Below, piece by piece: positions 1-59,503 of a stretch of DNA of 64,000 bases. Numbering within the stretch: position 1 is the first letter of the stretch; every line of letters begins with the position of its first letter. The DNA comes from Escherichia coli (GTDB lineage: Bacteria; Pseudomonadota; Gammaproteobacteria; Enterobacterales; Enterobacteriaceae). Both the position numbers and the translations under genes were made by a program. The notes beneath the pieces were generated by a model. That model had not been told where the DNA came from. It searched no databases and saw only the letters and a list, made by a program, of their open reading frames with translations. Location of the stretch: NCBI RefSeq assembly GCF_044647545.1, contig NZ_CP172818.1; one strand, given 5' to 3'.

Positions 1-506
1 TATCGGGAAACCAGGCTCCCGCTCTGGTAGCAATTTCCTTTGTGGTTGTTTTCCTGTGCCTTGCTGCACTCTATGAAAGCTGGTCAATTCCTGTCTCGGT
101 TATGTTGGTCGTGCCGTTAGGGATTGTCGGCGTGCTACTAGCGGCGACACTCTTTAATCAAAAAAATGACGTCTACTTTATGGTGGGCTTGCTAACGACA
201 ATTGGCTTGTCGGCTAAAAACGCTATTTTGATTGTTGAGTTCGCTAAAGATCTCATGGAAAAAGAGGGTAAAGGTGTTGTTGAAGCGACACTAATGGCAG
301 TACGTATGCGTCTGCGTCCTATCCTGATGACCTCTCTCGCCTTTATTCTCGGCGTATTACCGCTAGCTATCAGTAACGGTGCCGGCAGTGGCGCGCAGAA
401 CGCAGTGGGTATCGGGGTAATGGGCGGGATGGTTTCTGCAACGTTGCTGGCAATCTTCTTCGTGCCGGTGTTCTTTGTGGTGATCCGCCGTTGCTTTAAA
501 GGATAA
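1..506 (+). CDS. acrF: RND multidrug efflux permease AcrF, C-terminal part (5' end lies outside window)
   Basis: ORF reads in from the window edge to a stop at 506; hydrophobic RND C-terminal TM segments; position upstream of yhdV-yhdW as in E. coli. Confidence 0.75.
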
Positions 507-758
507 ATCAGAAACATAAAGGCACTTTCGGGTGCCTTTATTATTTTCAGTGAAACCCATAAAAATTAATAAGATATTCTTCTTCTCACTCTTTAAAAAC
601 TTTCTATAGTTCCCGCTCCCTTCACTATTTTTACAATTCACATAATTTGTCATTATTCATTCCGCAAGATTTATAACCTCCGGTGATAAAATGGCATTCA
701 GCTCGTTAATAAGAGAGTTAACTTATTAAGCGTTAGCGTTTATTACTGAGGTAACACC

Positions 759-980
759 ATGAAAAGATTAATTCCTGTGGCATTGCTCACCGCATTGCTG
801 GCGGGCTGTGCTCACGATTCGCCCTGCGTTCCGGTTTATGATGATCAGGGTCGACTGGTTCACACCAATACCTGTATGAAAGGCACGACTCAGGATAACT
901 GGGAAACGGCTGGGGCTATTGCTGGCGGGGCAGCAGCTGTTGCTGGCCTGACGATGGGGATCATCGCTCTGTCGAAATAA
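759..980 (+). CDS. yhdV: small lipoprotein YhdV
   Basis: 73 aa ORF with lipoprotein signal (LLAGC lipobox) and Gly/Ala-rich C-terminus; synteny. Confidence 0.75.
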   Translation: MKRLIPVALLTALLAGCAHDSPCVPVYDDQGRLVHTNTCMKGTTQDNWETAGAIAGGAAAVAGLTMGIIALSK

Positions 981-1410
981 CTGAACAGGGCGCGGAGTAC
1001 CGCGCTCTGTTTAACGATACAGTATCTCTCCATAAGATAAAATATTGCTATATTCTGCTGGGTAATTCCCTGCTGATTTAGCATGTTATATCGCGTTATT
1101 TCGCTGCTTTCGAAATAACGCATCAATTTAATTTTCACACTTCCTACCAGAAATATACTCACGCTAACAATCATTATTCTGCTTAGTAAAAAATGTGTGA
1201 ATATTTTGCGCCAAAATGTGGCGCATGTTTCATTTTCGCACCATTGCGGGGCGCTGTTTTTATTATTTCCTGTCTACACTCAGCTTATTGCGACGCGAAA
1301 TCGTGCGCAAAAGCTGGCACTACTTTTGCTTATAAGAGGATGGCCACAGACAGGTAAAAGACGTTTCCCAAACGTCCTATAACGATAATTTTCGCCTCAC
1401 AGGAAGCATT

Positions 1411-2436
1411 ATGAAAAAGATGATGATAGCCACACTGGCTGCCGCCAGCGTGCTGCTTGCCGTTGCAAATCAGGCGCATGCTGGCGCGACGCTTGATGCC
1501 GTTCAGAAAAAAGGTTTTGTGCAATGCGGGATCAGTGATGGATTACCTGGGTTCTCTTATGCCGATGCTGACGGTAAGTTTTCAGGTATTGATGTAGATG
1601 TTTGTCGTGGTGTTGCGGCAGCTGTATTTGGTGACGACACGAAAGTGAAATATACCCCGCTCACTGCAAAAGAACGCTTCACGGCTTTACAGTCAGGGGA
1701 GGTGGATTTGCTCTCCCGTAATACGACCTGGACTTCATCTCGCGATGCCGGGATGGGAATGGCATTTACCGGCGTCACTTATTACGACGGCATTGGCTTC
1801 CTGACTCACGATAAAGCGGGACTAAAAAGCGCGAAAGAACTGGATGGCGCTACCGTCTGTATTCAGGCGGGTACTGATACCGAACTCAACGTTGCCGATT
1901 ACTTTAAGGCAAACAATATGAAGTACACACCAGTGACTTTCGATCGCTCTGACGAATCAGCGAAGGCACTGGAATCTGGTCGCTGCGATACGCTGGCCTC
2001 GGATCAATCACAACTGTATGCCCTGCGCATCAAATTAAGCAACCCGGCTGAATGGATTGTCTTACCGGAAGTTATCTCCAAAGAACCGCTTGGGCCGGTA
2101 GTTCGTCGTGGCGATGATGAATGGTTCTCGATTGTACGCTGGACGCTTTTCGCCATGCTGAATGCTGAAGAGATGGGCATCAATTCCCAGAACGTCGATG
2201 AAAAAGCGGCTAATCCGGCAACGCCTGATATGGCACATCTGCTGGGTAAAGAAGGCGATTACGGCAAGGATCTGAAGCTGGATAATAAATGGGCTTACAA
2301 CATCATCAAACAGGTGGGTAACTACTCGGAAATTTTTGAGCGTAACGTAGGTTCAGAAAGCCCGCTGAAAATTAAACGTGGGCAAAATAATCTCTGGAAT
2401 AACGGCGGAATTCAGTACGCGCCGCCCGTGCGTTAA
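1411..2436 (+). CDS. yhdW: amino-acid ABC transporter periplasmic substrate-binding protein
   Basis: 341 aa ORF with signal peptide, first gene of a four-gene ABC transporter cluster; intact here. Confidence 0.85.
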   Translation: MKKMMIATLAAASVLLAVANQAHAGATLDAVQKKGFVQCGISDGLPGFSYADADGKFSGIDVDVCRGVAAAVFGDDTKVKYTPLTAKERFTALQSGEVDLLSRNTTWTSSRDAGMGMAFTGVTYYDGIGFLTHDKAGLKSAKELDGATVCIQAGTDTELNVADYFKANNMKYTPVTFDRSDESAKALESGRCDTLASDQSQLYALRIKLSNPAEWIVLPEVISKEPLGPVVRRGDDEWFSIVRWTLFAMLNAEEMGINSQNVDEKAANPATPDMAHLLGKEGDYGKDLKLDNKWAYNIIKQVGNYSEIFERNVGSESPLKIKRGQNNLWNNGGIQYAPPVR

Positions 2437-2503
2437 GTCGGTGTGAGGTAACGAGCGTCGCTACGGCGGCGCTCTCTTCAGCGTTATGCTTTCCGAGGTT
2501 TCT

Positions 2504-3685
2504 ATGTCTCATCGCCGCTCAACCGTTAAAGGCTCACTCTCCTTTGCCAACCCTACGGTTCGCGCCTGGTTATTCCAGATCCTTGCCGTTGTTGCTGTTG
2601 TTGGCATTGTTGGTTGGCTATTTCACAACACTGTGACGAATCTCAGTAATCGTGGCATTACTTCAGGTTTTGCCTTTCTGGATCGCGGCGCTGGCTTCGG
2701 TATTGTCCAGCATTTGATCGATTACCAGCAGGGTGATACCTACGGACGCGTTTTCATTGTTGGCTTACTCAATACGCTACTGGTTTCTGCATTGTGTATT
2801 GTATTCGCTTCTGTTCTGGGCTTCTTTATCGGTCTGGCGCGACTTTCGGATAACTGGCTGCTACGAAAGCTTTCCACAATTTATATTGAGATCTTCCGTA
2901 ATATTCCGCCGCTGCTGCAAATCTTCTTCTGGTACTTTGCCGTGTTGCGCAATTTGCCCGGACCACGCCAGGCAGTGAGTGCGTTTGAGCTGGCCTTTTT
3001 GAGCAATCGTGGGCTTTATATTCCGTCGCCGCAGCTGGGAGACGGATTTATTGCATTTATCCTGACTGTTGTTATTGCTATAGCCCTTTCTGTTGGACTA
3101 TTCCGTTTTAATAAAACGTACCAGATAAAGACCGGACAATTGCGCCGAACCTGGCCGGTCGCCGTTATGTTGATCATAGGTTTGCCTTTACTGGCGCAAT
3201 GGCTTTTTGGCGCAGCACTACACTGGGATGTTCCAGCCCTACGAGGCTTTAACTTCCGTGGCGGGATGGTTTTAATTCCTGAACTGGCAGCCTTAACGCT
3301 GGCACTTTCGGTTTATACCTCTGCATTTATCGCCGAGATTATCCGCGCTGGGATCCAGGCAGTGCCTTATGGTCAACATGAAGCGGCACGGTCACTGGGA
3401 TTACCCAACCCGGTTACGCTACGCCAGGTCATTATTCCCCAGGCACTGCGAGTGATTATTCCGCCGTTAACCAGCCAGTATCTCAACATCGTCAAAAACT
3501 CCTCTCTTGCCGCCGCTATTGGCTATCCGGATATGGTTTCGCTGTTTGCTGGCACCGTGCTGAACCAGACGGGGCAAGCCATCGAGACGATAGCCATGAC
3601 CATGTCGGTCTATCTGATTATCAGCCTGACTATCTCGCTGCTGATGAATATCTATAACCGCCGCATCGCGATCGTTGAACGCTAA
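2504..3685 (+). CDS. yhdX: amino-acid ABC transporter permease
   Basis: Polytopic membrane ORF; track ORF starts at 2486, likely start at MSHRR (2504). Confidence 0.85.
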   Translation: MSHRRSTVKGSLSFANPTVRAWLFQILAVVAVVGIVGWLFHNTVTNLSNRGITSGFAFLDRGAGFGIVQHLIDYQQGDTYGRVFIVGLLNTLLVSALCIVFASVLGFFIGLARLSDNWLLRKLSTIYIEIFRNIPPLLQIFFWYFAVLRNLPGPRQAVSAFELAFLSNRGLYIPSPQLGDGFIAFILTVVIAIALSVGLFRFNKTYQIKTGQLRRTWPVAVMLIIGLPLLAQWLFGAALHWDVPALRGFNFRGGMVLIPELAALTLALSVYTSAFIAEIIRAGIQAVPYGQHEAARSLGLPNPVTLRQVIIPQALRVIIPPLTSQYLNIVKNSSLAAAIGYPDMVSLFAGTVLNQTGQAIETIAMTMSVYLIISLTISLLMNIYNRRIAIVER

Positions 3686-3691
3686 GGAGTC

Positions 3692-4798
3692 ATGATGACA
3701 AAAGTATTGCTGTCTCATCCCCCGCGCCCGGCGAGCCATAACTCAAGCCGCGCGATGGTGTGGGTGCGAAAAAATCTATTCTCCAGCTGGAGCAATAGCC
3801 TGCTGACTATTGGCTGCATATGGTTGATGTGGGAACTGATCCCACCGTTGCTGAACTGGGCATTTTTGCAGGCTAACTGGGTTGGCTCAACGCGTGCCGA
3901 CTGCACAAAAGCCGGTGCCTGTTGGGTCTTCATCCACGAACGATTTGGTCAGTTTATGTATGGGCTTTACCCACACGACCAACGCTGGCGAATTAACCTG
4001 GCATTACTGATTGGGCTTGTATCGATCGCACCAATGTTCTGGAAAATACTCCCGCATCGCGGTCGCTATATTGCGGTATGGGCGGTGATTTACCCACTGA
4101 TTGTCTGGTGGCTGATGTATGGCGGGTTTCTTGGTCTTGAGCGGGTTGAAACCCGGCAATGGGGCGGGCTGACGCTAACTTTAATTATTGCATCAGTTGG
4201 GATTGCGGGGGCGCTGCCGTGGGGGATCTTACTGGCGTTAGGTCGCCGCTCCCATATGCCGATTGTGCGTATCTTATCGGTCATTTTTATCGAGTTCTGG
4301 CGCGGTGTACCGCTGATTACCGTTCTGTTTATGTCTTCGGTCATGCTGCCGTTGTTTATGGCAGAAGGCACCAGTATCGACAAATTGATCCGCGCGCTGG
4401 TTGGCGTGATCCTGTTTCAGTCAGCATATGTTGCGGAAGTCGTGCGAGGCGGATTACAGGCGCTGCCTAAAGGGCAATATGAAGCGGCAGAGTCGCTGGC
4501 GTTGGGTTACTGGAAAACCCAGGGGCTGGTTATTCTGCCACAGGCGTTGAAGCTGGTGATTCCTGGGCTGGTAAATACCATCATCGCACTTTTCAAAGAT
4601 ACCAGCCTGGTGATCATCATCGGGTTGTTCGATCTTTTCAGTAGCGTTCAGCAGGCAACCGTTGATCCCGCCTGGTTGGGTATGTCGACGGAAGGGTATG
4701 TTTTCGCAGCACTGATCTACTGGATCTTCTGTTTCAGCATGTCACGTTATAGCCAACATCTGGAAAAACGTTTTAACACCGGGCGTACACCGCATTGA
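3692..4798 (+). CDS. yhdY: amino-acid ABC transporter permease
   Basis: 368 aa polytopic membrane ORF immediately downstream of yhdX. Confidence 0.85.
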
Positions 4799-55892: not shown

Positions 55893-57131
<1,239 letters not shown>

Positions 57132-57201
57132 TTACGCATAAACCAATGTGAAATTATAATCACAAAATATGCATAAAAAATCACTTAATAGCAATCAGAA
57201 A

Positions 57202-57765
57202 TCAGCGATGCAGGAAATTAGCCAGCAGTTGATGTCCTTGTTCGCTGAGAATACTTTCTGGATGGAACTGCACACCTTCCAGATCCCACTGGCGATGGCG
57301 AATCCCCATAATCTCGCGGGTTTCGCTCCAGGCCGTCACTTCAAAGCACGCTGGTAATGAGTTAGGTTCCACCACCAGCGAATGGTAGCGTGTCACGGTA
57401 AGTGGATTTGCCAGCCCCCGAAATACGCCCTCACCGCTATGTGTAATCGGCGAGGTTTTGCCGTGCATGACCTTTGCGGCGCGCACAACTTTGCCACCAA
57501 ATGCCTGCGCCATTGCCTGATGACCGAGGCAAACGCCAAGAATCGGCAAGCACCCGACATAGTGGCGAATAACGTCAAGGGAGATCCCGGCTTCATCTGG
57601 CGTACAGGGGCCGGGTGAGATGACAATTTTTTGTGGTTTAAGGGCGTCGATATCCGCCAGCGTCAACGCATCGTTGCGCTTAACCAGCACATCCGCCCCC
57701 AGTTCACAAAAGTACTGGTAGAGGTTCCAGGTAAAAGAATCGTAGTTATCAATAAGCAGGATCAT
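57202..57765 (-). CDS. pabA: aminodeoxychorismate synthase component II (glutamine amidotransferase)
   Basis: 187 aa, [19 protein letters not shown], catalytic GVCLGHQ. Confidence 0.9.
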
Positions 57766-57796
57766 GGCGGCTCCGGTACGAAAGAACCGCGCTATT

Positions 57797-58399
57797 TTAC
57801 TCAGATTCCCCGGCTTCGCTTACCACTTTGCTAAATATCATCTGCAGTGCGGTGAGATCCCCCATTGCCCCACTCTGATTTGCCTGATTCCAGGCCTCTT
57901 TTTCGATACCCTGCCAGCTCAGTTGGTAGCCCGCATGAATCGCTAGTTGCTCGAAGAAGATCCGCTGTGCCAGACCACTTCCCACCCGGAAGGGATGCAG
58001 CACGTTGATTTCACAATAGTAATGCGCCAGCCGCTCGACGAACTTCGCTTTCTTCAGGCCAACCAGATAACCTTCTTCCTCCAGATCCTGCATCAGGGCA
58101 TTGCCCTCTTTTTCGATATAAGCAAAGTGGCAGAACGGCGTATCTCCCTGATAAATATCGACTTCGCGCAGTTGCCCCGCCCAGTCGAAAATATCCTGAT
58201 ACAGCTGGCGATGGATAGTGCGCAAATGCGGTAAACCGCGCACCAGCGGACCAAGCTCAATGGTCGCAGCACGTAGCGCCGTCATTTCGTAAGCGGCCTG
58301 TTCCAGCCGCTGCTGCTGGCGGATGTTCAGCCGGTTACGCATGATATCAAGGCCTGGATAAAGATACGGATCGCGCCCTTCGCCGAATTTATCGCTCAT
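57797..58399 (-). CDS. fic: Fic-family protein (putative adenylyltransferase / FicT toxin)
   Basis: 200 aa Fic fold; active-site motif reads [12 protein letters not shown]. Confidence 0.85.
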
Positions 58400-58556
58400 A
58401 GTGCCCCCTCAGCGCTTCAAGACGCGCTAAAGCCTCTGCGGCAGTAAGAGTGACTAAAGGCATCTCGACGCCTTCAAGACGGCGACTGGCCTGGAAATTA
58501 CGATTACGCTGAAGCTCCCAGAGACGGGACTTTTGCTTATCGGTGAGTTTCTTCAC
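58389..58556 (-). CDS. yhfG: small protein YhfG (putative FicA antitoxin partner of Fic)
   Basis: 55-codon ORF from GTG ([35 protein letters not shown]...), stop overlaps fic start; hand-translated, below track cutoff. Confidence 0.65.
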
Positions 58557-58660
58557 TTGATGCCTCCCTGAACGTGTCCATTTGCCACAAGTATAAGCGG
58601 CAAATCCGGGTTACGCCGGGAGAGCAGAAGCGCGGGCAAGATTGCCCGCGCGAGAAATCA

Positions 58661-59242
<582 letters not shown>

Positions 59243-59503
59243 TTAACAAACAGAGCAGAAAAAAAGCAAGTGAAGAGATTCTAAATAGCCTTCAAGAACA
59301 AGGCCATCCCTTTACCTAATTTTACGTATCTGAAATATATGTAACCTGACGGTCACTTTTTATTCCGTGATCAAAATCACCTCTTAAAATGCAATTTAGC
59401 AACCGATTGCAATAAAACATTTAATCAGATCACAAAATCGCCTAAAATCGCCCGCTCGCGGCATAGCCCGCTATGCCATTTTATTTTTGAACGCAGGCCA
59501 ATC

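Follow-up and report, generated by a model that had tools for sequence, protein, structure and literature searches.

A degenerate FIC motif in the yhfG-fic (EcFicA-EcFicT) locus of Escherichia coli is the normal allele of the species

[quoted passage not shown] In the window analysed here, a 64,000-nucleotide stretch of E. coli DNA (contig NZ_CP172818.1 of assembly GCF_044647545.1), positions 57797-58556 enclose exactly two open reading frames, both on the minus strand: yhfG (58389..58556), which starts with GTG and encodes a 55-amino-acid Fic partner of the FicA type (EcFicA), and fic (57797..58399), which starts with ATG and encodes a 200-amino-acid FIC-domain protein (EcFicT). The yhfG stop and the fic start overlap by 11 nt (58389..58399, minus strand), where the plus strand reads ttatcgctcat and the coding strand, ATGAGCGATAA, contains both the fic ATG and the yhfG TAA. 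This overlap, which an earlier note on this DNA had described correctly together with the 55-codon yhfG, suggests translational coupling of the two genes. Neither gene is a chance reading frame, since the Pfam and NCBIfam scores of both exceed the respective cut-offs: Fic scores 52.7 bits against PF02661 (Fic/DOC; cut-off 24, E=8e-14, residues 58-152) and 429.5 bits against the equivalog NF007672 (cut-off 181), and for YhfG the scores are 85.6 bits with PF10832 (cut-off 22.6, E=2e-24) and 124.8 bits with NF007573 (cut-off 77). The PF02661 match, above the gathering score, places Fic in the FIC domain superfamily; the match of Fic to the VbhT equivalog NF045983 is partial, at 137.6 bits against a cut-off of 800.

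The neighbours in the window are argD, pabA, ppiA and tsgA, and the annotation of K-12 MG1655 (b3359-b3364) has the same argD-pabA-fic-yhfG-ppiA-tsgA order. The K-12 annotation also contains an 18-codon gene, yrfJ (b4820; 4133-4186 of the locus extract), which is co-oriented with argD, overlaps its 5′ end and corresponds to about 57068-57121 of the window. Downstream of fic, a highly conserved 31-nt spacer (57766..57796, minus strand), with GGAG preceding the next ATG, leads into pabA (57202..57765, minus strand), identified by its reading frame and the K-12 annotation as aminodeoxychorismate synthase subunit 2; the aligned 56-nt stretch 57755-57810, which includes the spacer, has a mean column identity of 90% across four genera. 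Accordingly placed, pabA is a probable member of the operon, and the conservation of the spacer is consistent with its co-transcription with yhfG-fic. With respect to a connection between fic and PABA or folate (Komano 1991), the literature search yielded a secondary citation only.

On the other side of the pair, a Shine-Dalgarno sequence, AGGGAGG (58563..58569, minus strand), lies 6 nt upstream of the yhfG GTG, and the block CAGGGAGG is invariant in the four genera. Further upstream is a 22-nt block (TTGCCGCTTATACTTGTGGCAA / TTGCYGCTTATACTTGTGGCAA; 58582..58603, minus strand) with a -10-like hexamer, TATACT, at 58595..58590; the block is kept in E. coli, Salmonella, Klebsiella and Leclercia with one C/T difference (TTGCYGC), whereas its flanks diverge. 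It emerged from the four-genus alignment and not from promoter prediction: a scan of 57100-59500 for sigma-70 promoters and terminators returned nothing upstream of yhfG, and its hits lay within coding regions, the promoter hits being at chance level. Given this conservation and the regulon table of a transcriptome study in which yhfG-fic is RpoS-dependent (PMC2907692), we infer that the TATACT block is a candidate sigma-S-dependent promoter of yhfG-fic. Between the block and ppiA, directly after the ppiA stop, lies a GC-rich hairpin (gcgcgggcaa gattgcccgcgc; 58630..58651, minus strand), the stem of which is preserved with changed bases in Salmonella, Klebsiella and Leclercia and which the scan left uncalled because it lacks a T-run. 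Probably the hairpin sets ppiA apart from yhfG as a terminator or attenuator of ppiA; termination may be leaky, or the element may serve RNA stability.

The feature that drew attention to the locus is the FIC signature at Fic residues 135-146 (57962..57997, minus strand), delineated by translation and by column comparison with the characterised FicT enzymes Fic-1 and VbhT. In this segment His135, Phe137, Gly140, Gly142 and Arg146 (R2) are kept, and the acidic residue has become Val139, the Asn has become Ser141 and R1 has become Leu143, so that the protein lacks the canonical Fic AMP-transferase signature HxFx[D/E]GNGRxxR. The same columns of the residue-by-residue alignment hold HPFREGNGRAQR in Fic-1 (8WT0) and HPFREGNGRTLR in VbhT (3ZCB). 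Because these are alignments to characterised FicT enzymes, the changes E to V, N to S and R1 to L are real replacements at homologous positions, as the earlier note had read them from the motif.

The partner protein carries a motif that the earlier note had not mentioned, namely the inhibitory-helix motif SRRLEG at YhfG residues 24-29 (58470..58487, minus strand), which matches the regular expression [S/T]xxxE[G/N] perfectly. A small upstream gene that encodes such a helix is the hallmark of class I Fic (FicTA) systems, and yhfG conforms to it. In Salmonella, Klebsiella and Leclercia the motif is either SRRLEG or SRLLEG, with S24, E28 and G29 conserved. [quoted passage not shown] The Fic chains of PDB entries 5JFZ and 5JFF, which are titled 'Probable adenosine monophosphate-protein transferase fic' and are accompanied by 'YhfG', match the Fic of the window with E=1e-133 and have an identical motif, and YhfG matches 5JFF_B with E=1.5e-29; the crystallised proteins are near-identical to those of the window, with 1-3 native substitutions per chain in addition to the engineered mutations. 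Thus YhfG is EcFicA, co-crystallised with Fic, and the FicT/FicA layout proposed in the earlier note holds. One of the native differences is at Fic codon 27 (58319-58321): the 5JFF and 5JFZ constructs have His27, and the window, the MG1655 RefSeq sequence and strain FDN-4 have Arg27. Salmonella also has His at this position, and the crystallised sequence disagrees with the current K-12 reference.

Comparison within the species indicates that the motif is ordinary for E. coli. The Fic proteins of the window and of K-12 MG1655 (b3361) share the motif and are set apart by a single residue, 116, which is K in the former and E in the latter; between YhfG and its K-12 counterpart (b3362) there are two differences, both C-terminal (A48E and G51S). 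Of 5426 complete E. coli genomes, 5425 contain the 760-nt region, 5423 of them at full length, and 5427 of the 5428 placements are on chromosomes, with one on a plasmid; the annotation among the matches listed is fic and yhfG. Identity to the window allele over the 760 nt is at least 99% in 62 of the 5425 genomes and 95-99% in 5303, the best match being strain FDAARGOS_497 (100%). Since only these 62 genomes reach 99%, the lineage to which the window belongs is a minority one within E. coli. An exact match to the 60 nt that surround the motif occurs in 2828 genomes; a megablast search with the same 60 nt matched 4134 of 5426 genomes and was excluded as a presence count, its shortfall being due, we think, to the requirement for an exact 28-nt word.

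Divergent alleles that were sampled, those of FDN-4 and SCU-306, have the same motif. Strain N96 (NZ_CM169999.1) has the variant HPFRAGSGLAQR, a conservative V139A change; the position after R0 thus varies within E. coli among small hydrophobic residues, with no reversion to an acidic one. In strain MS 21-1 (NZ_CP146670.1; locus extract 215-3233), the IS21-like element ISEc10 (istA/istB) splits fic and leaves yhfG intact. This natural insertion shows that fic is dispensable, and the survival of an orphaned 'antitoxin' yhfG in the natural knock-out fits a gene that is dispensable and not addictive.

The same state extends well beyond E. coli. The 120 nearest clusters at 90% identity, which are 79-100% identical to Fic and whose named sources are Escherichia, Salmonella, Citrobacter, Klebsiella and Leclercia, all have HPFR[V/L/I/F]G[S/N]G[L/M/I][A/V]QR except for two single-residue variants; the canonical motif is found in none of the 120, and His135 is invariant in all of them. 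An exhaustive HMMER search against 50%-identity representatives covered the more distant relatives: 112 of the best 150 have the canonical HxFx[D/E]GNGRxxR, and the degenerate motif occurs only in the clade of the query or in fragments thereof. To judge from these sequences, the degenerate motif is wild type throughout the Escherichia/Salmonella/Citrobacter/Klebsiella/Leclercia clade and no mutation peculiar to the strain of the window.

Alignment of 113 clade members with the 112 canonical relatives yields the group-specific replacements E36A, F67Y, Y71F, K84Q, T79E and D55G, together with E/D139 to L/I/V/F and R143 to L/M/I; 110 of the 200 residues, including H135, G140, G142 and R146, are at least 99% invariant among the 113 clade members. 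Positions 36, 67, 71, 139 and 143 agree with the published analysis of specificity-determining positions, in which clade-specific residues cluster around the active-site groove (PMC5033356). All the residues that characterise the EcFicT-like subgroup 3 are present in the Fic of the window (A36, T40, Y67, F71, E79, Y83 and a hydrophobic residue in place of both R1 and D/E), and so is the synteny of this subgroup, with ppiA and pabA flanks and a ficA homolog upstream.

One of the group-specific positions has a history of its own. Gly55 (codon at 58235-58237) is the site of the classical fic-1 mutation, G55R, and is invariant in the EcFicT-like clade; the window has the wild-type glycine and not the fic-1 allele. 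In the 112 canonical relatives this position is Asp in 89 and Asn in 10, so that the fic-1 site is itself a clade-specific position. The adjacent Arg54 is Phe or Tyr in the canonical relatives.

Fusions of the two genes were also encountered. In-frame YhfG::Fic reading frames of 252 and 233 amino acids, with both PF10832 and PF02661, occur in short-read assemblies and originate from small deletions across the 11-nt overlap; the 252-residue form represents 15 member sequences. Such a fusion would convert the class I layout, with a separate antitoxin, into a class II-like layout with an N-terminal inhibitory helix, and these frames could be artefacts of assembly or gene calling. Moreover, a Logan contig from an enteric bacterium (ERR4228981_3458, 1011-1613) has a syntenic ppiA-[fusion]-pabA arrangement in which approximately 25 N-terminal YhfG residues are joined to Fic from about residue 35, the product being 68% identical to the Fic of the window. 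Its inhibitory motif is degraded to SSRLDI, and its Fic motif, HPFFVGSGRAQR, retains R1 and lacks the acidic residue and the Asn. It is possibly an intermediate or a variant state, seen on this one contig.

Both gene order and substitution pattern indicate a stable chromosomal locus. The loci of Salmonella, Klebsiella and Leclercia have the same tsgA-ppiA-yhfG-fic-pabA-argD order, the 11-nt overlap (2844-3011 / 3001-3603 in locus-extract coordinates, the same geometry in the three other genera) and a fic-pabA gap of 31-32 nt. The mobility and patchy distribution typical of type II toxin-antitoxin modules were not seen in E. coli, Salmonella, Klebsiella and Leclercia, where the position between ppiA and pabA is fixed; the locus is inherited vertically in a fixed context, unlike mobile toxin-antitoxin modules. 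Nei-Gojobori counts for E. coli against Salmonella, Klebsiella and Leclercia gave pN 0.08-0.13 and pS 0.63-0.73 for fic (dN/dS about 0.04-0.10), pN 0.09-0.13 and pS 0.61-0.71 for pabA (dN/dS 0.05-0.08), and pN 0.12-0.17 and pS 0.54-0.82 for yhfG (dN/dS about 0.04-0.20, with two saturated pairs undefined), all dN/dS values being rough because synonymous sites are saturated between genera; fic falls within a range similar to that of pabA. These counts clearly point to purifying selection on the fic-yhfG pair and not to decay, and rule out decay under relaxed selection.

The published record on the E. coli protein anticipates most of this. Stanger, Harms, Dehio and Schirmer (PLoS One, 2016; PMC5033356) renamed fic and yhfG ecficT and ecficA, solved the structure of the complex, and described EcFicT-like proteins as an enterobacterial subgroup, inherited vertically, with canonical AMP-transferases as its ancestors. 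In their account, ATP binding is probably blocked by Leu at R1 together with the hydrophobic residue that follows R0; no auto- or target-adenylylation by EcFicT was shown, even with the inhibition motif mutated (E28G antitoxin); a conserved hydrophobic groove points to an undiscovered substrate; fic knock-outs are viable like the wild type; and EcFicT is termed 'toxin-like' (PMC5033356). Lu et al. (Front Microbiol, 2020; PMC7479194) subsequently tested purified EcFic (b3361) on E. coli GyrB and ParE with 32P-alpha-ATP; EcGyrB with EcFic gave no signal even after 13 h of exposure, and EcFic is not among the proteins reported to modify ParE. In a review that cites Harms 2015, expression of EcFicT is stated to inhibit the growth of E. 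coli (PMC10886550). The mechanism of the fic-1 phenotype was still called 'elusive' in a paper of June 2026 (PMC13327609).

Thus the degenerate motif, its conservation and the structure with YhfG, as well as the lack of AMPylation, which was found again in 2020, were already known from 2016, and the observation is correct but not new, because the motif is the published wild-type state of a non-AMPylating protein. The earlier note had left two possibilities side by side, a catalytically altered or inactive enzyme and the normal allele of the species, and both apply: the K-12 motif is identical, all but three of the 5426 genomes have a full-length locus and 5JFF and 5JFZ have the same motif, and the reference protein is devoid of AMPylation in both studies. 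It had further held that the motif would be unremarkable if a reference E. coli Fic carried it and had documented activity. Such a reference Fic exists, which makes the finding unremarkable as a discovery, but what is documented is the absence of AMPylation instead of an activity. The alignment with K-12 Fic and FicT toxins that it had called for, when run, placed the protein one residue from K-12 and confirmed the replacements in the motif; this comparison and the proposed assay of GyrB/ParE AMPylation are already covered by published work, and on the proposed growth test the literature offers the review's statement of growth inhibition by EcFicT.

Taken together, the locus is very probably an ordinary, vertically inherited yhfG-fic (EcFicA-EcFicT) pair that encodes a former FicT protein, now non-AMPylating, which may still be a working enzyme with an altered substrate or at least a ligand binder; essentially no evidence speaks against the identification of yhfG-fic itself. 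Fic descends from class I FicT AMP-transferase toxins and has undergone three losses, those of R1, which holds the ATP beta-phosphate, of the acidic Mg2+ ligand and, in about half of the clade, of the central Asn. These losses would account for the lack of GyrB/ParE AMPylation, the absence of which is shown in the literature. Retained are His135 as the catalytic residue, the anion nest of glycines, R2 (Arg146) and the clade-specific pocket residues A36, T40, Y67, F71, V139 and L143, and YhfG, as the crystal structures of near-identical proteins show, still clamps the site with Glu28 paired to Arg146. Fic could then be an enzyme or a ligand-binding protein for a substrate other than ATP, restrained or assisted by YhfG. 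Its synthesis may be largely confined to stationary phase and driven by a sigma-S-dependent promoter, with pabA on the same transcript.

We lean slightly towards a working enzyme with a non-ATP substrate, a proposal that rests on conservation. An active enzyme appears likelier than an inert binder because there is no variation in the general-base His, in the anion nest or in R2, the pocket is specific to the clade and the blocking motif of the partner is intact. Two points weigh against this explanation, namely the viability of knock-outs (PMC5033356) and the natural insertion of an IS21-family element into fic in one strain.

A quite possible, if less probable, reading is that Fic is a dead pseudoenzyme kept for binding or scaffolding, for example of a former FicT target that it no longer modifies, with YhfG as a structural partner. 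Two laboratories found no activity, three residues that bind nucleotide or metal are gone, knock-outs are viable, and strong purifying selection suits binding as well as catalysis. However, the 120 clade sequences show no change in His135, in the anion nest of glycines or in R2, although the fold does not need them, the clade-specific residues are arranged around the active-site groove, and the retention in YhfG of the exact S..EG motif that blocks an active site is hard to explain without something to block.

Conceivably, though with considerable doubt, the pair might be no toxin-antitoxin system at all but an obligate two-subunit enzyme in which Glu28 is catalytic: a dedicated hydrolase or 'eraser' of a phosphodiester-linked protein modification that has shed the ancestral transferase residues, or else a transferase with a non-nucleotide donor that uses the clade-specific hydrophobic groove. 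Such proposals are tenable because H135, R146, S24, E28 and G29 are under purifying selection and R1 and the D/E residue are gone; if true, stationary phase would be the time of action of the complex, whose genes would be expressed along with pabA. The more specific form of the first proposal, an unlikely one, holds by analogy that YhfG-Fic is an obligate two-subunit eraser of AMP or a related phosphodiester-linked group that would have lost its transferase function. Its model is the Fic-1-AntF complex (E=8e-49 to Fic), found in 2026 to be a deAMPylase that requires AntF E28 and complex formation. The lost R1, and in part the Asn, serve the ATP beta- and gamma-phosphates, which are absent from a deAMPylation substrate, and H135, R146, S24 and E28 are all conserved; furthermore, vertical inheritance suits a housekeeping role better than an addiction module. 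On the other hand, deAMPylation by Fic-1-AntF depends on a divalent metal and Fic has Val139 in place of the acidic residue, and no writer enzyme for such a mark was identified at the locus.

The conventional FicT/FicA reading, in which the toxin AMPylates GyrB/ParE and growth stops upon loss of YhfG, is very improbable. The layout, overlap, inhibitory motif and complex all match FicTA modules, the VbhT model gives its partial match of 137.6 bits, and the review statement on growth inhibition (PMC10886550, citing Harms 2015) points the same way; yet the equivalog score is far under the cut-off of 800, neither the acidic residue nor Asn nor R1 is present in the motif, two independent studies are without GyrB/ParE AMPylation, and inheritance is strictly vertical in a fixed context, so a GyrB/ParE-AMPylating toxin of the conventional kind is essentially excluded. 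A strain-specific loss-of-function allele, pseudogene or decaying gene, for which solely the departure from the textbook motif speaks, is dismissed by the comparison with K-12, FDN-4, SCU-306 (all identical in the motif) and N96, by the genome census, in which 2828 genomes have the exact 60 nt and 5423 of 5426 a full-length locus, and by the dN/dS of fic, about 0.04-0.10.

Behind the locus stands an old and real question, that of the substrate, target and physiological role of the founding member of the FIC family, and the filamentation caused by fic-1 (G55R) has been a puzzle for about 40 years. The window adds no new handle on the function of E. coli Fic and has little weight as a hit of a sequence scan.

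Parallels are offered by FIC proteins with a different chemistry. In Doc, the signature retains a basic pair (NKR) where the Fic of the window has SGL. [quoted passage not shown] The Fic of the window, in contrast to both, has Leu at R1 and neither an acidic residue nor Lys after R0, and an alternative signature of the Doc or AnkX type is ruled out because its motif matches neither. VbhT/VbhA of Bartonella schoenbuchensis (3SHG, 3ZC7, 3ZCB) shares the FIC fold and the antitoxin embrace with the pair of the window, and VbhT aligns to Fic residues 5-185 with E=2e-32; unlike Fic, it has the canonical HPFREGNGRTLR, is a proven GyrB/ParE-AMPylating toxin, is plasmid-borne and has a BID secretion domain. 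Closer is Fic-1/AntF of Pseudomonas bijieensis 2P24 (8WT0), where the partner is likewise encoded upstream of a class I Fic that equals the Fic of the window in length, aligns to its residues 1-196 (E=8e-49) and in which the S24/E28-R146 geometry of AntF is the same. Fic-1 differs in its canonical HPFREGNGRAQR and AMPylates Tyr111 of GyrB as well as ParE, the Fic-1-AntF complex carrying out deAMPylation, whereas in the Fic of the window the three key residues are V, S and L, and AMPylation is absent. Finally, EcFicT/EcFicA (K-12 b3361/b3362; 5JFF, 5JFZ; PMC5033356) is the same locus as that of the window: both have the motif, A36, T40, Y67, F71, V139, L143, wild-type G55, the overlap of 11 nt and the same neighbours, and the difference is allelic only.
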